From IMG/VR virus record IMGVR_UViG_3300045988_037349: DNA of 11,270 bases; one strand, 5' to 3'. Source of the stretch: a virus. Below the pieces are notes generated by a model. The model worked only from the letters and a program-made list of their open reading frames with translations. It had not been told where the DNA came from and did no database searches. The translations under genes were made by a program, and so were the position numbers. Shown piece by piece: positions 1 to 11,270 of this stretch; positions within the stretch are counted from its first letter, which is position 1, and every line of letters starts with the position of its first letter.

Positions 1-73
1 TAAGAGTAAATAAACATCAACATCCAAAGAATACGAATATGAATATCAAGAAGAAATATGCACAACGACCCCC

Positions 74-115
74 TTTTTAACATTTCCCAACACATTTTTA
101 ACATTCGCCAACAGA
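74..115 (+). repeat. Two tandem 21-bp direct repeats inside the ITR (mirrored at 11156..11197)
   Basis: TTTTTAACATTTCCCAACACA (74..94) is followed directly by TTTTTAACATTCGCCAACAGA (95..115). They match at 18 of 21 positions. The 21-bp period is about two helical turns. Confidence 0.9.
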
Positions 116-149
116 GTTTGGCACGCTTTTTGCATAGGCCGTGCCAAAC
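116..149. repeat. Perfect 10-bp inverted repeat with 14-nt spacer inside the ITR (mirrored at 11122..11155)
   Basis: GTTTGGCACG (116..125) and CGTGCCAAAC (140..149) are exact reverse complements. The spacer is CTTTTTGCATAGGC. Confidence 0.9.
119..135 (+). promoter_or_regulatory. Sigma-54-type -24/-12 consensus match, copy 1 (in ITR); promoter function unproven
   Basis: TGGCACG-CTTT-TTGCAT fits TGGCACG-N4-TTGCW at every conserved position. It is part of the conserved 21-mer TTTGGCACGCTTTTTGCATAG (117..137). Confidence 0.45.
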
Positions 150-189
150 CTCCAAAATCCATGAAAAAACACCTCATCGCAAAATAATT

Positions 190-206
190 TGGCACGCTTT
201 TTGCAT
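190..206 (+). promoter_or_regulatory. Sigma-54-type -24/-12 consensus match, copy 2 (outside ITR)
   Basis: The identical 21-mer TTTGGCACGCTTTTTGCATAG lies at 188..208, 71 bp downstream of copy 1. It points toward the first gene. Confidence 0.45.
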
Positions 207-253: not shown

Positions 254-285
254 TTTGCATTAAGCACACAAAGTAACTACCTTTG
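254..285 (+). promoter_or_regulatory. Bacteroidota-type promoter (-33 TTTG / -7 TAnnTTTG) for the early operon
   Basis: TTTG (254..257), then a 20-nt spacer, then TACCTTTG (278..285). An A-rich leader follows up to the ATG at 319. Confidence 0.65.
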
Positions 286-1745: not shown

Positions 1746-2384
1746 ATGCCTAACAAGATAGGATACAAACAAAGCGTATTTACTGCAACTCAACGTACAG
1801 AGTTAAGGCAGGACATCATACAAAGCGTTGAGAGTAGCCCTGAACTAAGAAAGGAAGTAAGACGCGTATTTCAGCAAGCAAATAGACGTATACAGAATAT
1901 AGAAGACAAGGGGTTATTAAGTCCCGCAGTAACAGCCTTAAACAAAGGAGATATAAAAGGCTTTAGCAAATTTTCCGTTAGTGGCCAAAGTTGGGACGAA
2001 ATAAAAACAGAGTACGCAAAGGCAGTATCTTTTTTACGTCAGCCAACGAGTACCGCTCAGGGCACACGAACGTATAATGACCACATAAAAACCGCCTACG
2101 GACTTACCGACAAAGAATTTAATTTAATGGTCGGCAAGCTAAACGAAAAGCTAACAAGTTTAAGCGATAGCGATTTTGTAGAAAAATACCTAATGAAGTA
2201 CAAAGATTTTACGGGAGATTTGGAGCAAAGCGCACGAGACGCTAGCGAACAAATTGAAAGTGAAGCAGTAAGCCTACAAAACGCCATAGATAGCAATATC
2301 GAAAGCGAAGCCAACAAACTAACTAACGAAGTCGAAAGTGAGATTAACAGCATATTAGAAGAATTTAATAACTTCGGTTTATGA
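1746..2384 (+). CDS. Candidate terminal protein (212 aa)
   Basis: It lies immediately upstream of the protein-primed PolB and is coupled to it by an ATGA overlap (2381..2384), the same synteny as phi29 gp3-gp2. The N-terminal half is basic (RKEVRRVFQQANRRIQNIEDKG) and the C-terminal half strongly acidic and Ser-rich, like a DNA-mimicking priming domain. Sequence similarity to phi29 terminal protein is weak. Confidence 0.55.
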   Translation: MPNKIGYKQSVFTATQRTELRQDIIQSVESSPELRKEVRRVFQQANRRIQNIEDKGLLSPAVTALNKGDIKGFSKFSVSGQSWDEIKTEYAKAVSFLRQPTSTAQGTRTYNDHIKTAYGLTDKEFNLMVGKLNEKLTSLSDSDFVEKYLMKYKDFTGDLEQSARDASEQIESEAVSLQNAIDSNIESEANKLTNEVESEINSILEEFNNFGL

Positions 2385-4567
2385 AAAAGGTAAAATATGA
2401 GCAACATAGTGGTATTTATAAGGCAACCCACATAAAAGATATTTTGCAGTTGGCCGTAAATGACAAAAACGTAATAGGCAACAATAAAGGGTGTAAATTT
2501 TACAACGTGCCGTGCTCATTTGATATAGAAGTAAGTAGTTTTTATCGAGACGAAGACGGCAACACATACACATACGAGCAGTACACTAAATTAGGTGTAA
2601 AAATGGAAAAATGTGCTATTATGTACGTGTGGCAATTTGGCATAAATGGGTACGTAATAGTTGGCCGTACCTGGGACGAGTTTACAGCCATGTGTAACAC
2701 GATAGCGGCAACTTTGGAGTTATCCACAAACAAAAAACTAATAGTATATATACACAATTTATCATACGAATTCCAGTTTTTGCGCACCCTTTTTGAGTGG
2801 GACAAAGTATTTAGCATTGACCTACGCAAGCCATTATACGCAACTACAACAATAGGCTTAGAATTTAGGTGTAGCTACTTACTAAGCGGCTACAACCTAG
2901 CAAAGTTAGGCGAGCAACTACAAACGTACAAGTGTGCAAAAATGGTTGGAGATTTGGACTACACCAAAATACGCCACACACAAACAAAGTTAACCGATAA
3001 AGAGTTGCTTTACTGCGTAAATGACATAAAAGTAGTAATGAACTACATACAAGAGCAATTGGAGCAAAACAAGTTAATAACAAGATTGCCACTAACTAAA
3101 ACGGGTTATGTACGAAAGCATTGCCGCAAAGCAATGCTAAGCAAAAATGTTAACGGAAAAACCGCCCGAAATTGGGAATGTATTAATTTAATCCAATCAC
3201 TAACTATTTCGGGACTCCACGAATTTAACATGTTGCAAAGGGCTTTTAGTGGCGGATTTACCCACGGCAATGCTAACCACATAGACGAAATATGTGAAGA
3301 CGTTGCAAGTTACGATTTTACGAGTAGTTACCCGTATGTTATGGTGTCCGAAAAATTCCCTATGTCGAGAGGTATAAGGGTGCAACCCCGAAACATGAAA
3401 GAATTTGAGTACTACACAAGTAAGTACCTTTGTATTTTTGACGTGGAATTTACCAACATTTTTGCAAAAGAGTTGCAGGATAACCCTATAAGTGTATCTA
3501 AATGCTTTGTAAAAATAAATCACGTTGAAAATAACGGCCGCTTAGTATGTGCTGCAAAGGTAGCCACTACAATAACTAACATAGACTACAACATAATACG
3601 CAACTTTTACTCGTGGGGCGGTGTCCGTATCGGTGCAATGTATTGTTATAAGGCCGACTATTTACCAACTGATTTTGTACGTACCATTTTGGACCTATAC
3701 GAAAATAAGACAAAGTTAAAAGGCGTGCAAGGAAAAGAAGTGGAGTATTTAAATAGTAAGGAAATGTTAAATAGTTGCTATGGTATGTGTGTTACTAACC
3801 CGTTGCGCGATGAATTTGTATATGATGGGCAATGGGACGAAAACAAACTAACAGAAAGCGAAAAGGCCGAGATGTTACAGAAGTACAACGAAAGTAAAAA
3901 CCGATTTTTGTTTTACCCTTGGGGTGTTTTTGTTACTGCTTATGCAAGGCGCAATTTATTTACTGCAATCTACGAGGCAAAGCAAGATTACATATACAGC
4001 GACACCGACAGCATTAAACTACGTAACGCAGCAGCACATAAGCGGTATTTTGATATGTATAACAATGTAGTATATAACAAATTAAAGGCCGCGTGCAAAC
4101 ATCACAACATAGATTTTGACAAATGTGAACCCGAAACAATTAAAGGTGTTACAAAAACTTTAGGCGTTTGGGACTACGAAGGGACATACAAACGCTTTAA
4201 GACGTTGGGTGCGAAAAGATACATGGTGCAGGCAGAAAACGCCATAAACGTAGGCGGCAAAAGTTATGAATACAGCCTAACAATTAGCGGTGTAAACAAA
4301 AAGGCTGCAATACCCTACCTAGTTAAAAAGTATGGTGACAACATATTTAACGCATTTACGAATTATTTAGAATTTCCGTGCGAAGCCACGGGAAAGAATA
4401 TACATACATACATAGACTACAAAATAAGTGGTGAAGTAACCGACTACACGGGCAAAAAATGTACCTTTGCCGAAAACACGGGTGTACACCTAGAGCCAAC
4501 AAGTTACAACCTATCTTTAAGCGTTATGTACCTTAATTATTTGCAAGGCATAAAGCTAAAAGATTAA
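2381..4567 (+). CDS. Protein-primed family-B DNA polymerase (728 aa)
   Basis: All signature motifs occur in order: ExoI CSFDIEV, ExoII HNLSYEFQF, ExoIII YCVNDIKV, motif A YDFTSSYPYVM, motif B KEMLNSCYGM, motif C YSDTDS (nt 3995..4012), and KxY GAKRYM. Confidence 0.96.
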   Translation: MKKVKYEQHSGIYKATHIKDILQLAVNDKNVIGNNKGCKFYNVPCSFDIEVSSFYRDEDGNTYTYEQYTKLGVKMEKCAIMYVWQFGINGYVIVGRTWDEFTAMCNTIAATLELSTNKKLIVYIHNLSYEFQFLRTLFEWDKVFSIDLRKPLYATTTIGLEFRCSYLLSGYNLAKLGEQLQTYKCAKMVGDLDYTKIRHTQTKLTDKELLYCVNDIKVVMNYIQEQLEQNKLITRLPLTKTGYVRKHCRKAMLSKNVNGKTARNWECINLIQSLTISGLHEFNMLQRAFSGGFTHGNANHIDEICEDVASYDFTSSYPYVMVSEKFPMSRGIRVQPRNMKEFEYYTSKYLCIFDVEFTNIFAKELQDNPISVSKCFVKINHVENNGRLVCAAKVATTITNIDYNIIRNFYSWGGVRIGAMYCYKADYLPTDFVRTILDLYENKTKLKGVQGKEVEYLNSKEMLNSCYGMCVTNPLRDEFVYDGQWDENKLTESEKAEMLQKYNESKNRFLFYPWGVFVTAYARRNLFTAIYEAKQDYIYSDTDSIKLRNAAAHKRYFDMYNNVVYNKLKAACKHHNIDFDKCEPETIKGVTKTLGVWDYEGTYKRFKTLGAKRYMVQAENAINVGGKSYEYSLTISGVNKKAAIPYLVKKYGDNIFNAFTNYLEFPCEATGKNIHTYIDYKISGEVTDYTGKKCTFAENTGVHLEPTSYNLSLSVMYLNYLQGIKLKD

Positions 4568-4571
4568 AAAT

Positions 4572-4585
4572 GTTCCACGTGAAAC
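4572..4585. promoter_or_regulatory. Third copy of the CACGTG-centred 14-bp palindromic site
   Basis: GTTCCACGTGAAAC lies 10 nt upstream of the ATPase ATG, in the 28-nt gap between polymerase and ATPase. It is the reverse complement of the 914..927 site apart from one base. Confidence 0.5.
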
Positions 4586-4595
4586 AATCCAAACA

Positions 4596-5711
4596 ATGAA
4601 GAAAGAAGCAATAAAATTTTACTCGCTCGCAAATATCCTAAACAAAAAGGCAGATTATAACATAATATTCGGTGAGCGCTCAAACGGCAAAACATACGCT
4701 ACTTTGGCGTATGGTATAAAGAAGTATGTACAGACAGGGAAACAAATGGCCTATATACGTAGGTGGCGAGAGGATTTGCGTGGCAAACGTGCCGAAAGTC
4801 TGTTCGCTAACCACGTTGCAAACGGGTATATTGAAGAAGTAACAAATGGAGAATTTAACGCGGTATTTTACTTAGGTAGTAAATGGTATCTTGCAAAATA
4901 CGACCAAGAAAAGAAAAAGTACGTGCCCCAAACCACACCTTTTTGCTATGGCTTTTGCTTGTCAGAGCAAGAGCATGAAAAGAGTAGCAGTTACCCCAAC
5001 GTCACAACGATAGTATTTGATGAGTTTTTAACTCGTCGCTACTACCTACCCGACGAGTTTATGCTGTTTATGAACCTTTTAAGCACCATAATAAGACAGC
5101 GAGACGACGTTAAAGTATTTATGTTGGGTAACACGATTAACAAGTTTTGCCCCTACTTTACCGAAATGGGGTTGAAGCAAGTAACTAACATGGAGCAAGG
5201 CACTATCGACATATACAAGTTTGGGCAACATGGAGCAGTAGTAGCGGTGGAGTATTGCAGCACCATTGTCAAGCAAAAAGCAAGTAACAAGTATTTTTGC
5301 TTTGACAACCAAAACCTTGAAATGATAACCGGGGGCAAGTGGGAAATGGCGGCCTATCCACATTTGCCAACTAAATACACCCCCAAAGACGTGCTTTTTG
5401 TGTATTACATTGTATTCAACGAATACATTTTGCAAGGCAACATTATACAAGCAGGAAACGAAAACTTTACCTACATACACAGGAAGACCACCCCCATAAA
5501 AGACCCCGAAAACGCCCTAATATACAGCCTACACATGAACGGAAAACCGAACTACAAGCGCAAGTTAATAAGCAGTGCGACGTATTTAGAGAGTCAAGTG
5601 GCGCGGTATTTTGCCACCGATAAAGTATTTTACCAAAATAACGAGGTAGGCGAAATTGTGCGAAATTATTTAATGACATCCGCCAAAACCAACATTGTAA
5701 GTATCAAATAA
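4596..5711 (+). CDS. DNA encapsidation (packaging) ATPase, phi29 gp16 family (371 aa)
   Basis: Walker A is FGERSNGKT (nt 4671..4694). The segments AYIRRWREDL, EKSSSYPNVTTIVFDEF (Walker B) and LGNTINKFCPYF run parallel to my recollection of gp16 (GARGIGKS, IYVRRYKPEL, EKSNAYPNVSTIVFDEF, LSNAVSVVNPYF). Confidence 0.93.
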   Translation: MKKEAIKFYSLANILNKKADYNIIFGERSNGKTYATLAYGIKKYVQTGKQMAYIRRWREDLRGKRAESLFANHVANGYIEEVTNGEFNAVFYLGSKWYLAKYDQEKKKYVPQTTPFCYGFCLSEQEHEKSSSYPNVTTIVFDEFLTRRYYLPDEFMLFMNLLSTIIRQRDDVKVFMLGNTINKFCPYFTEMGLKQVTNMEQGTIDIYKFGQHGAVVAVEYCSTIVKQKASNKYFCFDNQNLEMITGGKWEMAAYPHLPTKYTPKDVLFVYYIVFNEYILQGNIIQAGNENFTYIHRKTTPIKDPENALIYSLHMNGKPNYKRKLISSATYLESQVARYFATDKVFYQNNEVGEIVRNYLMTSAKTNIVSIK

Positions 5712-5725
5712 TTTCTGTACATTTG
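5694..5725 (+). promoter_or_regulatory. Bacteroidota-type promoter for the structural block
   Basis: ATTG (5694..5697), then a 20-nt spacer, then TACATTTG (5718..5725). It spans the ATPase 3' end and the intergenic gap, with the -7 box ending 23 nt before the ATG at 5749. Confidence 0.55.
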
Positions 5726-5748: not shown

Positions 5749-5955
5749 ATGGATATTACACAAGTCACCCAAATAATTTCGAATGTTGGTTTTCCGATTG
5801 CTATGTGTCTAATAGTATTTTACTACATGACAAAGCACGATGAGCAGCATAAGGAAGAAACCGACAACCTACGTACTACCTTAGAGGATAATACCAAGGT
5901 ATTGAGCGAGTTAAGTACCCTAATTAAAACGTTGACGAATGGCAAAGAAAGATAA
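5749..5955 (+). CDS. Small single-pass membrane protein, YvrJ-like; candidate holin (68 aa)
   Basis: The N-terminus IISNVGFPIAMCLIVFYYM resembles the YvrJ family signature (xxNxGFPI plus a TM helix). The C-terminal tail is charged and looks coiled-coil. It overlaps the portal start by 17 nt. Confidence 0.6.
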   Translation: MDITQVTQIISNVGFPIAMCLIVFYYMTKHDEQHKEETDNLRTTLEDNTKVLSELSTLIKTLTNGKER

Positions 5956-6973
5956 CTTGTACCTAAAGTACCAAGAACAGATAAAAGACAAAGATAAAAG
6001 CGTAAATGGCTACATTCGCAAAATGTTAGCCATAACACAAGCAATGTTTGTTTACAAAGGTTTGCCCGAAACATTACCACAGAACACCCTTGAAAACCTA
6101 CTACAGACAAACGGCAATGTTTTTGTTACTGAGGTAGAAGGCAAATTATACGCTTTTAGTGGTGGCCTTGGAGGTGTCCCCAACGCGTACAATGAGGCAA
6201 CCGAATATATTGTAAGTAACCCCTATTTGAAACTCAACAAGTCGTACAAAATAGACGTTGAGGGCGTATTAATTAAAAACGATAGTGGCGCAAATAGCCT
6301 TTTGCCTATTTTTGGCAAATATGGTGTGTTGTGTAGTGATACGCTTGTGTCTCTTAACACATGCTCTGTTCTGTCTCGTATCACTATGTTAATAAGTGCG
6401 AGCGATGACAAGACAAAGCAAAGCGCGGACGATTTTGTAAATAAAATCATGCAGGGCGATTTTTCGGTAATTGGCGAAAACGCATTTTTCAAGGGCGTAA
6501 ACCTGCAAAGTATCAACACACAAAGCGCGAACCAAATAACGCAATTAATTGAGTTATTACAGTACTTCAAGGCGTCTGCATTCAACGAAATAGGCCTAAA
6601 CGCAAACTATAATTTAAAGCGAGAGCGGTTAAACACAAGTGAAGTACAAATGAATGTAGACGCCCTCAACCCTTATGTAGATAATATGTTGCAAGAGCGC
6701 AAAAAGGCAGTAGACAAGATAAACGCCATGTTTGACACTGAAATTAGTGTCGAGTTGGGTAGTAGTTGGGCTATACGCAAAGAAGAAAACAAAACCGAAA
6801 ACGAAGAAAATGAAGATAATAAAAATAATACTTCTGATAGTGGCGAAAGTGCTACTGAACAGAAAGAAGAGGAAGTAACAGAAACGGAAACCGAAATCGA
6901 AACGGACAAAGAAACGGACGAAGAAAAGGAACCCGAAACGGACAAAGAAACGGAAGAAAATGAAAATAATTGA
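5939..6973 (+). CDS. Portal / head-tail connector, phi29 gp10 family, with about 65-aa acidic C-terminal extension (344 aa)
   Basis: Blocks are collinear with my recollection of gp10: FVYKGLPETLPQNTLENLL vs FEWENLPPTINPSFLEKSI; FSGGLGGVPNAYNEATEYIVSNP vs [29 protein letters not shown] vs GVVIYNND; FNEIGLNANYNLKRERLNTSEV vs [20 protein letters not shown]. Confidence 0.85.
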   Translation: MAKKDNLYLKYQEQIKDKDKSVNGYIRKMLAITQAMFVYKGLPETLPQNTLENLLQTNGNVFVTEVEGKLYAFSGGLGGVPNAYNEATEYIVSNPYLKLNKSYKIDVEGVLIKNDSGANSLLPIFGKYGVLCSDTLVSLNTCSVLSRITMLISASDDKTKQSADDFVNKIMQGDFSVIGENAFFKGVNLQSINTQSANQITQLIELLQYFKASAFNEIGLNANYNLKRERLNTSEVQMNVDALNPYVDNMLQERKKAVDKINAMFDTEISVELGSSWAIRKEENKTENEENEDNKNNTSDSGESATEQKEEEVTETETEIETDKETDEEKEPETDKETEENENN

Positions 6974-7533: not shown

Positions 7534-8706
7534 ATGAACGTAAAACAGATTTACACCCTTGTAAACTCAGTATCTAAAGAGGTTTTAGGTACTGAGGAAC
7601 TAGTAAGCGAGGATTTAACAGGGCTTGTCGACCTTGGCAACGAAGTTTTTAATCAAAACGCGGTAGACAATTACGTTAAATCTCTTGTTAACCATATTGG
7701 TAAGGTGGTTTTTGTAAATCGCCCCTATGCTGGTAAAATTCCGTCTGTACTTATGGACGCTTGGGAATTTGGTTCCGTGCTCGAAAAGATTAGTGCAGAC
7801 TTACCCGAAGCCGTTGAAAATAAAACGTGGGAGTTAACCGACGGGGTGGATTACTCACAAGATGTATTTCATAAGCCAAAAGTTACAGCTAAATTTTTTA
7901 ATAGCAAGGTAACTTTTGAGGTTCCCGTATCTATCACCGAGCGACAAGTTAAGGAGAGTTTCAGCAACGCTGAGCAACTTAACGCATTTCTTTCGATGAT
8001 TTATAACGCGGTGGAGAAGTCCATTACCATTAAGACGGACGCGTTAATTATGCGCACTATTAACAATATGATTGCGCAAACTTTACTCGCTGATAGCGCG
8101 GCCTTTGGCGGTGATGCTGCACCCGACTACACAAGCGCAAGTACCGCTCGTTGCGTTAACTTGCTAAAGTTGTACAACGATAACAAAGGTACTACTTTGA
8201 CCGCTGAAAAGGCACTGACCGACCCCGATTTCATCAAGTTTGCAAGTTATACTATCGGCTTGTACACTGATAGACTTGCAAGTATTTCGAGCGTCTTTAA
8301 TATTGGGGGTAAGCCACGATTTACGCCGCGCGAAAACTTGCACGTTGTGTTACTGTCAGATTTCGAGAAAGCCGCCCGCGCGTATCTCTACAGCGATACA
8401 TACAACAAAGAGCAAGTATTATTACCGAATGCCGAAAGTGTTCCATTTTGGCAGGGTAGCGGAACAAAGTACGATTTTGCAAGCACGGCACATATCAACA
8501 TTAATGAGACTGGCGGAAAACCCGTTAAGATTAGCGGTGTACTTGGTGTTATGTTCGACCGTGACGCATTAGGCGTTTGCAACCTCAACCGCCGCGTTAC
8601 TACTAACTACAACGCAAAGGCGGAGTTCTTCAACAATTACTACAAGTTTGACGCTGGCTATTTCAATGACACTAACGAAAATTTCGTAGTTTTCTTTGTC
8701 GCTTAA
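7534..8706 (+). CDS. Major capsid protein, phi29 gp8 family (HK97 fold), 390 aa
   Basis: Blocks are collinear with my recollection of gp8: [19 protein letters not shown] vs [40 protein letters not shown] vs [30 protein letters not shown] vs [23 protein letters not shown] vs LEAVLVDKDWFMV. A dedicated promoter and a strong terminator flank it, as expected for the most abundant virion protein. Confidence 0.85.
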   Translation: [390 protein letters not shown]

Positions 8707-8725: not shown

Positions 8726-8760
8726 AAGGTGGTGTAATATACACCACCTTTTTTAATTTT
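8726..8760 (+). terminator. Rho-independent terminator or attenuator after the capsid gene
   Basis: Perfect 11-bp stem AAGGTGGTGTA (8726..8736) / TACACCACCTT (8740..8750) with a 3-nt loop. TTTTAATTTT follows, so with the TT closing the stem the U-tract has 6 T. Confidence 0.85.
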
Positions 8761-8766
8761 ACTACT

Positions 8767-9207
8767 ATGATACTATATAACTATAAGGGACAACCTAACA
8801 CGATTAACAAAGCGCTTACCCCATTAGGCACTATTAACGTTGCTTTGCGCCCCGAACTAAATGTACATAATCCAACGTTAAAAATACAAATGCCCCCTAA
8901 TATATACGGGTTTAATTACGTTTACTTGGAGGATTTCAGAAAGTACTACTTTGTAGACAATTTTAGATACGTAGGAGGTAATACGTGTTTACTTACTTTG
9001 TCGCTTGATGTACTACAGACGTACCAAGATGTAATACTACAAAGTACCGCGTTAATAGTGGAGAGCGACCACGCAAACCGCGATTTGTCTGTAAATAGCA
9101 ATGTTTTTGACGTTTTCCCTAAAACAGATATTTTGCGGTTTCCTACTTCTAACCTTTTCGATAAGAAGGGCAGCATAATAATGGTAACACTAAAAGGTAA
9201 TAAATAG
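8767..9207 (+). CDS. Tail knob N-terminal-domain homologue (phi29 gp9 N-terminus-like), 146 aa
   Basis: FNYVYLEDFRKYYFVDNFRYVGGNTCLLTLSLDVLQTYQDVILQSTALIVE runs parallel to my recollection of the gp9 N-terminus: [56 protein letters not shown]. Confidence 0.6.
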   Translation: MILYNYKGQPNTINKALTPLGTINVALRPELNVHNPTLKIQMPPNIYGFNYVYLEDFRKYYFVDNFRYVGGNTCLLTLSLDVLQTYQDVILQSTALIVESDHANRDLSVNSNVFDVFPKTDILRFPTSNLFDKKGSIIMVTLKGNK

Positions 9208-9208
9208 T

Positions 9209-11059
9209 ATGGCAGATTATGTTTTGGGTAATTTGGTTAATGATATACCAAATACCACACTAACACAGCGAGACACAGGTAAAACGGAAACGGACAACCA
9301 AGGAGTTACACGCACAATTACAGAAATTACAATAACTTGTGATGATGGGTTCTACTCGCTTAAAGATTGGCAAAACGATTTAAATGGGAAATTTACGTAT
9401 AATGACGCTTTAACGAGTGGCACGCAAGAAGTAAAAACAAAGGTAAACAACTTAAATGTAGGGTGGACTTTCAGCGGCTCTACAAACGCGCTGCCTAACG
9501 TAACAAATAACATAGAGAATACCACCTACAAAATAAGCAAAGCACAACAAGACGTAAGTGTTAACGTTATAGTTGTGACAGCTAACGCAGGGTATCAGTT
9601 TGACGATCCGCCAACGTGCAAATATACTGACGGGTTCGGAGGTGACGCAACAGCAAAAGGTGTTATAAGTCAAAACAAACAAAGCGCAACTTTTACGATA
9701 GAAGACGCCTACAACAAGCGGCCTAACTTCGTTCTAATTGGTGACGTTGTGGAAGGTACGCCAACGATTACCATAACAAATAACTTAGACGGCACAAACG
9801 CTACATATACATACGATAACGGCACTTTTAACATAACAATTAAAGGTACAAACAGCGGCTATGTTATACAAGTGGCCAACGTAACGTACAAAGATAACGG
9901 GGGTGTTTCGCATACTGATAACATGACAATTGCGAGCAGCGACACCGCAACTATCGCATTAACAAATGTAGACACCGCTACACCCGTTGTTATTAATGGC
10001 ACTTACATTAAGGCGATACCCGTAAAAAACACCCTATATAATTGTACGGCCGAAAATATACCAACATATTATACCGCTACCGACAAAGTTAATGTTACAC
10101 TACAAGCAAATGAGGGTAGTAAGTTTACAAGCGAGACAGACCCACCCGAAATAAGATATACTGACGAGTTCGGGGGTGTACAATATAAACGTTTTACGCT
10201 AAGCGATGAAGGCAAACGGGGTAGCATAACACTTGACATTGCAACCGAATGCCCCAAAACTGAGTACATCGAATTTCGTGGAGGGGCAAAAGTTGATGTA
10301 CAGCCAAGCATTAAAAATTATGGTGCTATCAATGTGTATGTAGTTACGCTTGACAACCTCGAAGCGTTTAGCAAAAAACGTTACTTCACAGAAAGCGGCA
10401 CTTTTATTACCTATGAACAAGACCTAAGCGAGTATGTGAACAGAATTAAGCGTATTTATACACATATACCAACAAAAGGCACTGACCGAATAAAATGCGG
10501 CAACTACGATACCGAGATAAACGCAGATTTGCCCGAAAAGGATATAATAACGCTTGATTTTGGCAGTATCACGATACCACGCAAAGATAATACCACACTT
10601 GATAAAGATATGATAATCGAGGTATTTTTGCCGTTCGTGGGTATTGTTTCGCTTTCTTCTGACTACGTTGGTAAATCTGTAAAATTGGTGTACGATATAA
10701 ATGTAATTAGCGGTGACGGGGTTTGTAAATTGTTGGATAATAACGATTTACCGATACAATTACATAACGTACAACCTAATACCGATGTACTTTACACTAC
10801 TTACGACACGTCCGTAATAGGTAACGATAGGTGGGACGCACAAAATTTATATGGCTTTGAGCCGTTTGTGAGGCTGAATTACTACACCAATGAGTACAGC
10901 GATACACGCGGCAACGACTACAAAAAAGTTGTACTTTCGCACTGTGCAAAAGGTTTTTACAAGTTCGATGAGATTGTAAATAATGATATAGACAACGTAC
11001 CAAAAAGTGAGTACACCGAAATTGTTAATTTATTGCAAAGCGGTGTGTTTATAGATTAA
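9209..11059 (+). CDS. Tail protein (616 aa): about four tandem beta-rich repeat modules plus a gp9-like tail knob C-terminal region; probable receptor-binding component
   Basis: It starts 1 nt after the upstream stop. The repeat motif is DPPxx[KR]YTD[GE]FGG, seen as DDPPTCKYTDGFGG and TDPPEIRYTDEFGG. The C-terminal segments IEVFLPFVGIVSLSSDYVGKSVKLVYDINVISGDG and EYTEIVNLLQSGVFID resemble my recollection of gp9 segments [23 protein letters not shown] and DLQEIRTIFDNGITLW. Confidence 0.6.
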   Translation: MADYVLGNLVNDIPNTTLTQRDTGKTETDNQGVTRTITEITITCDDGFYSLKDWQNDLNGKFTYNDALTSGTQEVKTKVNNLNVGWTFSGSTNALPNVTNNIENTTYKISKAQQDVSVNVIVVTANAGYQFDDPPTCKYTDGFGGDATAKGVISQNKQSATFTIEDAYNKRPNFVLIGDVVEGTPTITITNNLDGTNATYTYDNGTFNITIKGTNSGYVIQVANVTYKDNGGVSHTDNMTIASSDTATIALTNVDTATPVVINGTYIKAIPVKNTLYNCTAENIPTYYTATDKVNVTLQANEGSKFTSETDPPEIRYTDEFGGVQYKRFTLSDEGKRGSITLDIATECPKTEYIEFRGGAKVDVQPSIKNYGAINVYVVTLDNLEAFSKKRYFTESGTFITYEQDLSEYVNRIKRIYTHIPTKGTDRIKCGNYDTEINADLPEKDIITLDFGSITIPRKDNTTLDKDMIIEVFLPFVGIVSLSSDYVGKSVKLVYDINVISGDGVCKLLDNNDLPIQLHNVQPNTDVLYTTYDTSVIGNDRWDAQNLYGFEPFVRLNYYTNEYSDTRGNDYKKVVLSHCAKGFYKFDEIVNNDIDNVPKSEYTEIVNLLQSGVFID

Positions 11060-11065
11060 CGGCCT

Positions 11066-11082
11066 ATGCAAATAGCGTGCCA
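11066..11082 (-). promoter_or_regulatory. Sigma-54-type consensus match, right-end internal copy (minus strand, facing inward)
   Basis: The reverse complement reads TGGCACG-CTAT-TTGCAT. The full 24-mer TTTGGCACGCTATTTGCATAGGCC differs from left copy 1 by a single base. Confidence 0.35.
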
Positions 11083-11107
11083 AATGTTTTTGGTACGCTA
11101 TTTTTTT
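11073..11107 (+). terminator. Rho-independent terminator after the last gene
   Basis: 12-bp stem TAGCGTGCCAAA (11073..11084) / TTTGGTACGCTA (11089..11100) with one G-U wobble and a 4-nt loop. Seven T follow (11101..11107). The left arm is part of the right-end internal 21-mer copy. Confidence 0.75.
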
Positions 11108-11116
11108 GTTTATTCG

Positions 11117-11270
11117 TGGAGGTTTGGCACGGCCTATGCAAAAAGCGTGCCAAACTCTGTTGGCGAATGTTAAAAATGTGTTGGGAAATGTTAAAAAGGG
11201 GGTCGTTGTGCATATTTCTTCTTGATATTCATATTCGTATTCTTTGGATGTTGATGTTTATTTACTCTTA
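11117..11270. repeat. Right inverted terminal repeat (154 bp, perfect)
   Basis: Exact reverse complement of 1..154. Together with a protein-primed PolB, this is the classic architecture of terminal-protein-capped linear genomes. Confidence 0.97.
11136..11152 (-). promoter_or_regulatory. Sigma-54-type consensus match, right ITR copy (minus strand, facing inward)
   Basis: This is the ITR mirror image of 119..135. It lies 70 bp from the right-end internal copy, against 71 bp between the two left-end copies. Confidence 0.35.

Follow-up and report, generated by a model that had tools for sequence, protein, structure and literature searches.

Why would a linear phage genome keep the same pair of 21-nucleotide boxes at both of its ends when only one end has a gene lying downstream of them? 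This question is raised by the IMG/VR record IMGVR_UViG_3300045988_037349, a stretch of 11,270 nucleotides (nt) hereafter called the window, which is the complete linear genome of a small podovirus and is bounded by inverted terminal repeats (ITRs). An initial annotation, made from the letters alone, had noticed that the 21-mer pair of the left end is mirrored at the right end, and had argued that the motif works at each end, in a replication origin at least as well as in a promoter. Here, we propose with modest confidence that the 21-mer is a site or promoter for the host sigma-54 RNA polymerase carried in the ITR, and that at the right end the internal copy is a relic put to new use in a terminator, a reading built on comparative sequence analysis.

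The 21-mer TTTGGCACGCTTTTTGCATAG is found without mismatch at 117-137 and 188-208 on the + strand and at 11134-11154 on the - strand, and with one mismatch at 11064-11084 (- strand), the last being the right internal copy; no match was expected by chance (200 shuffles). All four copies face inward, and the start-to-start distance is 71 nt at the left and 70 nt at the right, as the initial annotation had described. Its account of the ends was equally accurate. The perfect ITR measures 154 nt and continues to 169 nt at 96% identity, while past nt 154 the ends diverge (AAATCCATGAAAAAAC... at the left versus CGAATAAACAAAAAAA... at the right) and a shifted 44-nt arm (77% identity) beyond the ITR covers the internal copies. 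All long open reading frames (ORFs) of the window lie on the + strand in the program-made ORF list, and this genome has indeed no inward-facing gene at its right end. The elements of the two ends are the following:

1..154, + strand: left perfect ITR, with the homologous family terminus AAATATGCAC... at nt 54.
77-92 and 98-113, + strand: two direct TTAACATTYSCCAACA boxes, mirrored at 11158-11194 (4 matches versus 0.06 expected).
119..134, + strand: copy 1 of the left end, in the ITR, TGGCACGCTTTTTGCA; sigma-54 -24/-12 core, predicted start at ~145.
141-149, + strand: inverted arm GTGCCAAAC after left copy 1, its hairpin partner.
190..205, + strand: copy 2 of the left end, outside the perfect ITR, TGGCACGCTTTTTGCA; sigma-54 core, predicted start at ~216.
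254..285, + strand: Bacteroidota-type primary-sigma promoter (TTTG at 254-257, TACCTTTG at 278-285) before gene 1 (ATG at 319), conserved in relatives.
11067..11082, - strand: right internal copy, TGGCACGCTATTTGCA, facing inward; sigma-54 core, predicted start at ~11056, antisense to the tail gene.
11070..11110, + strand: intrinsic terminator of the late/tail operon, with a 15-bp stem (11070-11084/11089-11103), a 4-nt loop and T7.
11137..11152, - strand: copy 1 of the right end, in the ITR, facing inward; sigma-54 core, predicted start at ~11126.
11117..11270, - strand: right perfect ITR, from the inverted-repeat search.

Two ORFs of 49 and 55 aa that run across the ITR (58-225, + strand, and 11064-11213, - strand) were discarded as mirror images produced by the repeat, without support of their own. 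Copy 1 can also fold with a GTGCCA(AA) partner into a hairpin whose stem contains the -24 element and whose loop contains the -12 element (dG -18.4 and z -3.1 in the window). Across lineages, this inverted partner stands at a distance of N11 to N19 from copy 1 and is missing in many.

All four copies of the window fit TGGCAC-N5-TTGCW exactly, with GG at -24, GC at -12 and canonical spacing. Written as TGGCACG-N4-TTGCA, the window core is a full sigma-54 -24/-12 promoter core; at the sequence level, the four copies are perfect matches to it. With one mismatch allowed, the TGGCAC-N5-TTGCW pattern has 6 matches versus 0.34 expected, a number reached by none of 200 shuffles, and we calculate the chance of finding it inside a random 21-mer at ~6e-6. 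The box of the relatives, TTGGCACGGTTTTTGCT, is identical at 17/17 positions to the published RpoN consensus of Geobacter sulfurreducens (PMC2725144). The window's TGGCACGCTTTTTGCA is identical at 14/16 positions to the Sinorhizobium (S.) meliloti nifH promoter TGGCACGACTTTTGCA, the two differences being spacer positions; the latter is the DNA used for cryo-electron microscopy of complexes with the sigma-54 holoenzyme, E-sigma54 (PMC6028918). Given these matches, the invariant T-run between the two elements of the phage boxes is part of the known consensus. The argument for an origin in the initial annotation had been made without recognizing the motif as a consensus sigma-54 promoter, and it loses ground once this identity is considered. 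Host E-sigma54 probably binds the boxes. According to two reports, the holoenzyme forms on its promoters a stable and silent closed complex until an AAA+ activator remodels it (PMC4591121, PMC9770992).

Other identities for the 21-mer were examined and rejected. As a Bacteroidota -33/-7 promoter it would have its TTTG, with no TAnnTTTG at the right distance. As a fixed palindromic operator it would need a fixed partner, whereas GTGCCA(AA) is at variable distance or missing. Finally, a resemblance to the adenovirus NFI and Oct-1 sites (TTGGC...GCCAA in copy 1; ATGCAAAT in the right copy) was taken as coincidence, since this virus has bacterial promoters.

To follow the motif beyond the window, relatives were retrieved from IMG/VR by a capsid-based search. 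It confirmed 340 matching stretches, of which nearly all belong to a single large data set from the human gut and the best 80 were examined. A second search, seeded with a more distant member, confirmed 302 more, partly overlapping the first set. By identity of the major capsid protein (MCP), we distinguish the window's own group (84-96% identical to the window, L001-L014) and two clades named after their MCP identity, the 80% clade (L015-L080) and the 75% clade (L088 and L102-L181). The polymerases of these three motif-bearing clades are 65-67% identical.

Almost every relative whose contig reaches its ends has 1-3 exact sigma-54 cores per end, and the terminal copies of the left end always lie on the + strand, those of the right end on the - strand, hence all face inward. 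TTGC at canonical spacing accompanies 79 of the 130 unique inward terminal TGGCA[CT] sites of the relatives versus 11 of 227 internal sites. Conservation was then measured in 67 unique ends anchored on the upstream boxes only, so that the motif itself was not selected for (an earlier logo anchored on GGCA only was too noisy and was replaced by TGGCA and upstream-box anchors). In this set, TGGCAC is present in 100% of the ends, the G that follows in 94%, TTTTTG in 96-100%, the -12 C in 85% and W in 94%, and the flanks vary freely. Copies with other spacers (GCTAT, or GAAAT in mid-genome copies of relatives) retain both the -24 and the -12 elements.

The terminal copy also has a constant position: measured from the physical end of the DNA, its TGGCAC begins at nt 66 in all three clades. 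This physical terminus is marked by sequencing adapters, which abut AAATATGCAC in L006 and L013 and AAAGGTAC in L088, and many contigs begin exactly there. By homology, the corresponding position in the window is nt 54. The outer 53 nt, mirrored at the other end (11218-11270), have no match in the window, the examined loci or IMG/VR, and may be an assembly product or a real extension; L018, L028, L049 and L071 likewise carry unrelated or internal sequence mirrored outside the terminus. The alignment of 34 unique ends gives a module without indels, which reads AAA..., TTTAAC-N2-TTCCCAAC, TTTAAC(A)...AACA and TGGCACGSTTTTTGC. In this alignment conservation is highest in the sigma-54 box and drops sharply directly after it, and the TTTAAC/CCCAAC columns are near-invariant. 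The TTAACATTYSCCAACA boxes are as conserved family-wide as the sigma-54 box, and in the 80% clade every further sigma-54 box has its own TTAACATTYSCCAACA copy, forming a 58-nt unit.

The internal copies behave differently. Most genomes of the 75% clade have a single box per end, and the spacing of the internal copies differs among relatives (47, 58 and 70-72 nt). Several left internal copies are mutated at critical positions, reading TTGTA in L001 and L004, TCGCA in L009, TGGCAA in L002 and TGGCCC in L006. The initial annotation had held that relatives lacking the internal copies would speak against a function at each end, and this is partly the case: one clade has single copies, and close relatives carry mutated ones. 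The internal copies are helpful at most and dispensable, and their spacing varies.

No sigma-54 core was found in the Firmicute-type relatives L091, L093, L094 and L097, which have Shine-Dalgarno sequences and TTGACA/TATAAT promoters, nor in the proteobacterial Astrithrvirus genomes. The motif is confined to lineages that have Bacteroidota-type TAnnTTTG promoters and lack Shine-Dalgarno sequences. In Bacteroidota, the primary-sigma consensus consists of 'TAnnTTTG' at -7 and 'TTTG' near -33 (PMC7366714). Such a -7 box also precedes the first gene at the ends of the relatives, and that of the late operon (see below) is present in nearly all relatives of the three motif-bearing clades. The TTTG/TAnnTTTG promoters and the lack of Shine-Dalgarno sequences point to a host among the Bacteroidota, presumably a species with rpoN; the tail protein gave no informative match as to the host. 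Within the Bacteroidia, some genes are reported or predicted to be under sigma-54 control, such as grpE and groES of B. thetaiotaomicron (PMC12316311).

How, then, did boxes come to stand at an end without a gene? At the left end, gene 1 lies downstream of the boxes and is co-oriented with them; the right end of the window has no such gene, and relatives do have one. In the 80% clade, L026 for example has a 268-nt ITR with three boxes (the third regularly reads TTGTT in this clade) and two copies of the palindrome TGTTTCACGTGGAACA, and a TAnnTTTG promoter and genes follow the ITR at both ends. At its right end there are two minus-strand ORFs, parted from the tail gene by a convergent terminator. 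Among cultured phages, astrithr, Phanie, DU_PP_III and Vibrio phage K58 g2 have 2-4 annotated minus-strand genes at the right end, past the tail and endolysin genes. Astrithrvirus phages have inward operons with sigma-70-type promoters at both ends; in DU_PP_III, one of the two phages scanned, such a promoter lies inside the 219-nt ITR. In astrithr and Phanie, a separate endolysin gene follows the tail gene and is itself followed by the right-end operon. The window has neither of them, and no endolysin domain was detected in any of its ORFs with Pfam and PHROGs.

In this comparison, the lineage of the window has lost a right-hand operon together with the inner ITR, and its present layout is a derived state. 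Within the window's wider group, L011 and L014 have ITRs of 617 and 366 nt, which take in three boxes and the promoter and reach into the first gene. The second of these boxes stands 68-70 nt past the first (which reads TTGGT at -12 in L011) and has the spacer GCTAT, the same as the right internal copy of the window. Spacer and position make the right internal copy a homologue of the second ITR box. Since copy 2 of the longer ITRs has the same spacer and distance, the 70/71-nt spacing is inherited and was not independently retained. The selective keeping of motif and spacing at both ends, a main argument of the initial annotation, is thus replaced by descent from longer ITRs (366-617 bp in relatives). 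Moreover, because the absence of genes at the right end is derived, the mirrored right copies are such remains as ITR-borne promoters would be expected to leave.

The right internal copy has nevertheless taken up a second occupation. Its reverse complement forms the 5' arm of the last terminator, whose 15-bp stem and T7 bear out the overlap seen by the initial annotation. The + strand RNA folds with a dG of -20.7 kcal/mol (z -4.5), and the element combines a stable GC-containing hairpin, a U-tract, a location at the end of a transcription unit and conserved pairing. Across nine relatives, standard pairing is seen in each of the 133 cells scored for the 15 pairs, three pairs have compensatory double changes, and sliding the partner arm destroys the pairing. 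In eight of the nine, one pair is G-U and can form only in the + strand RNA. Its placement leaves the inward box as TGGCAC, and the outward arm reads TGGTAC. The sequence TATGC (the minus-strand -12 element, TTGCATA) lies outside the stem yet is invariant in all nine, including L002 and L006, whose tail-gene ends are unrelated. As to the origin of the hairpin, an inverted partner and an A-run lie between the two right copies and provide the 3' arm and the U-tract on the + strand. L006 has TGGCGC at the right internal site, and L013 uses an unrelated hairpin as terminator.

A sigma-54 core within a terminator is found a second time in the family. In the 80% clade, a hairpin after the ATPase gene has minus-strand T/CGGCAC-GAAAT-TTGCA at its centre (5268-5305 in L026). 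This centre is enclosed by different stems in L042 and L078, another stem surrounds TGGCACGGTTTTTGCC in L074, and the centre is flipped in L032; the window's clade has no hairpin at this place. It is possible that these recurrent boxes are antisense promoters or serve as head-on roadblocks through parked E-sigma54. For the window, we conclude that the right internal copy is very probably a remnant of the ITR, used today as one arm of a terminator.

Put together, these observations suggest an arrangement in which the terminal protein-linked end would be followed by the two TTTAAC boxes, 1-3 inward sigma-54 boxes, the Bacteroidota primary-sigma promoter and the early genes. Ancestrally, this module would have been part of a long ITR with an inward-reading operon at each end. 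The window lineage would then have lost its right-hand operon and most of the inner ITR, and the second right box would have survived through remodelling of the neighbouring sequence into an inverted partner and a T-run, so that it would now act as a 5' terminator arm on the + strand with an intact -24/-12 core on the - strand. If a host enhancer-binding ATPase acts on bound E-sigma54, the polymerase would fire inward, at the left from ~145 and ~216 into gene 1; at the right, transcription from ~11126 and ~11056 would give antisense RNA only. That the boxes are promoters which depend on an activator and supply the early operon or operons is a separate point, on which we are tentative and place the chances slightly short of even, because there is no phage activator and no room for an upstream enhancer, and a primary-sigma promoter lies downstream.

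Several observations weigh against a sigma-54 promoter. Of the 67 unique copy-1 sequences, 57 have C at -12, 9 have T and 1 has G, and the ends with T (~13%) include some from genomes with a single copy per end; in known sigma-54 promoters the -12 C is nearly invariant. No enhancer-binding ATPase domain was matched in the phage proteins by Pfam or PHROG profiles, and no enhancer could be recognized in the 65 nt upstream of copy 1, which are filled by the direct TTTAAC boxes; a host activator may act from solution or from a downstream position. The primary-sigma promoter directly before gene 1 would suffice for early expression, the two right-hand copies of the window have no gene to express, and a fixed distance of 66 nt from the terminus is not a promoter requirement. 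A literature search for natural sigma-54 promoters in lytic phages or in terminal repeats found no description. Finally, the host labels obtained from bins of metagenome-assembled genomes (MAGs) for 13 loci contradict one another (Prevotella, Scatosoma, Melainabacteria, Staphylococcaceae and others), and were set aside as mis-binning. As a separate observation, whole phage genomes of the L085-L097 set are binned in MAGs of unrelated phyla, adding Gastranaerophilales and Tissierella, and we regard this as contamination of public MAGs by an abundant small phage.

If not mainly expression, what else could the boxes do? For the right internal copy alone, the sequence could be an ITR remnant without any protein-binding function, kept only as a strand of the terminator stem. 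We find this doubtful. It would explain why 12 of the 16 core bases (15 of the 21-mer) are part of a stem with 100% pairing and compensatory changes, why a G-U wobble reveals selection on the + strand RNA, and why L006 here reads TGGCGC and L013 has an unrelated hairpin as terminator; the decay of the left internal copies at critical positions in L001, L002, L004 and L009 goes in the same direction. It does not account for the 9/9 conservation of TATGC outside the stem where the upstream sequence is unrelated (L002 and L006), for a wobble that in eight of nine relatives spares the inward copy and spoils the outward arm, or for the second, independent sigma-54 core in a terminator of the 80% clade. 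The boxes, placed 66 nt from each protein-capped end and within terminators, could also park host sigma-54 polymerase, stably bound and not firing, rather than serve mainly for expression. The parked polymerase would be an architectural aid to protein-primed initiation or to the protection of the ends, a head-on roadblock reinforcing termination and/or a sink for the scarce sigma-54 of the host; we regard this as quite improbable.

The initial annotation leaned towards an origin. In this reading the terminal copy and the two TTTAAC boxes would be part of the protein-primed origin, where bound sigma-54, holoenzyme or a phage protein would aid the terminal protein and polymerase in recognizing or opening the end. 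We rate this as unlikely for the motif as a whole, although the exact start of TGGCAC at nt 66 in three clades with polymerases of 65-67% identity, without indels over the 81-nt module, speaks for it. The terminal module is also the best-conserved non-coding DNA of the family, copy 1 is universal where the number of further copies varies, and it is retained at the right end of genomes that have no gene there. An ITR, however, mirrors its content automatically, and presence at both ends is uninformative by itself. Further copies stand at variable spacing (47, 58, 70-72) and even mid-genome within terminators, the proteobacterial and Firmicute-type relatives with homologous polymerases, some with a homologous terminal protein, do without the motif, and identity to the sigma-54 consensus has no obvious replication rationale. 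As for the right internal copy, single-copy relatives indicate that it is dispensable. The claim that an origin fits at least as well as a promoter thus holds in part. An auxiliary role at the origin, or one in the architecture of the ends, is possible on the comparative data for the terminal copy only, which is universal and always 66 nt from the terminus; the other leg of the claim, the missing right-hand gene, is explained as a derived state. The least probable of these explanations, in our view, makes the box an operator for a phage-encoded DNA-binding protein (an early regulator or end organizer) that resembles a sigma-54 site by coincidence. The constraint on all positions of TGGCACGSTTTTTG in copy 1 would agree with it, as would the frequent pairing of the box with an inverted GTGCCA(AA) at N11-N19 and the existence of small early proteins, one of which, a 56-aa product (1152-1322), is found in two motif-bearing clades and not in the third at E<=1e-3. 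It is however very unlikely that chance would produce 17/17 identity with the Geobacter RpoN consensus, T-run of the spacer included, the variable or absent inverted partner leaves no fixed dimer site, and no DNA-binding domain was detected in the early proteins by Pfam or PHROG search. We thus retain a host sigma-54 polymerase site as the preferred identity of the box.

Compared with known RpoN promoters such as TTGGCACGGTTTTTGCT and TGGCACGACTTTTGCA, the boxes have the exact GG and GC, the canonical spacing, the TGGCACG...TTGCW frame and the T-rich spacer, and in the window at the left, as in relatives at both ends, they are co-oriented with downstream genes. They differ in their place, the ITR of a lytic phage with protein-primed replication, in their fixed distance of 66 nt from the DNA end and in forming tandem series of 1-3, without an enhancer or an activator gene and with a primary-sigma promoter downstream, some of them being gene-less or antisense within terminators. 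With DU_PP_III, Phanie and astrithr the window shares an 11-12 kb genome, a protein-primed family-B polymerase, a gp16 ATPase, a connector and a phi29-type capsid (the ITRs being 171-219 bp in Phanie and DU_PP_III, with an 18-nt perfect repeat in the astrithr record), as well as host-type promoters that face inward at both ends. In contrast to the Astrithrvirus phages, which have sigma-70-type boxes and keep the right operon, the window has sigma-54-type boxes and a Bacteroidota -7/-33 promoter and has lost that operon. The terminator is like other Rho-independent terminators in its 15-bp GC-containing stem, 4-nt loop, U7 directly past the last stop and covariation, and unlike the usual ones in that one of its arms doubles as a complete promoter-like box of the other strand.

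Adenovirus ITRs contain NFI and Oct-1 sites that are auxiliary to the origin, and the phi29 ends contain p6 nucleation sites. In common with these, the boxes are sites of a host-factor or architectural-protein type, located tens of base pairs from an end capped by terminal protein and at a fixed distance from it; unlike these, the motif also occurs away from the ends, and a role of it in replication is hypothetical. In the literature, the Bacteroidota-type Astrithrvirus-like branch appears in one report as a passing mention of metagenomic genomes only (PMC11476376). What we describe is a known site type in an unusual place and arrangement. No lytic phage is known to build its genome ends around sigma-54 promoters. 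If E-sigma54 binds, an abundant human-gut phage family (over 300 genomes) would couple its earliest events to host signalling; alternatively, a parked host polymerase would be a structural part of the genome ends. The comparison also provides annotation rules for this family (the true terminus, the 81-nt module, early and late promoters of the Bacteroidota type, and a right operon lost in this lineage) and indicates that an ITR remnant can be recycled into a terminator.

The remaining features of the window, all on the + strand, are listed below:

2381-4567: protein-priming family-B polymerase (PF03175).
4596-5711: gp16-type packaging ATPase (Pfam profile match).
5718-5725: TACATTTG, -7 box before the holin/late operon.
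5749-5955: holin-like product of 68 aa (Pfam/PHROG search of the proteins).
5939-6973: phi29-type connector (Pfam profile match).
7534-8706: phi29-type MCP (Pfam profile match).
9209-11059: last gene, 616 aa, presumed tail/receptor-binding protein, ending 1 nt short of the 24-mer at 11061-11084.

The profile matches of the window proteome (PF03175, PF05894, PF05352 and PF25622 together) thus bring a protein-priming polymerase, a gp16-type ATPase, and a phi29-type connector and capsid into one genome with ITRs, as expected of phi29-like and Astrithrvirus-like phages. A 212-aa ORF upstream of the polymerase gene, conserved across the metagenomic relatives, is a putative terminal protein gene. 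The window DNA had no nucleotide match among GenBank phages. At the protein level, the nearest cultured phages are Astrithrvirus and its kin (Salmonella astrithr/Astrid, Acinetobacter Phanie, Pectobacterium DU_PP_III and one Shigella phage), with MCPs 57-59% identical to that of the window; the 616-aa product has weak similarity to that of the corresponding Astrithrvirus-like gene. A search of Rfam, including pRNA-like or structured RNA at the ends, returned two chance-level matches only.

Some further observations concern the rest of the genome. The window has 3 copies, versus 0.01 expected, of the palindrome TGTTTCACGTGGAACA, which has a CACGTG core and a TGT-N10-ACA outline: a tandem pair before the third early ORF (887-902 and 913-928) and a single copy between the polymerase and ATPase genes (4571-4586). 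In the 75% and 80% clades the palindrome is part of the ITR, where it separates the sigma-54 boxes from the primary promoter (215-231 and 251-267 in L026); it resembles an operator or enhancer. Degenerate 12-nt repeats of the GAAACGGA type make up the 3' end of the connector gene (6786-6970) and encode an acidic low-complexity tail. Two more strong terminator hairpins are present in the window, at 1701-1729 and 8726-8750, and each of them is followed by a common 24-mer, ACCTWTTTTAATTTTAC...ATG (regions 1701-1748 and 8726-8769), which leads into the 212-aa putative terminal protein gene and a 146-aa tail protein gene, respectively.

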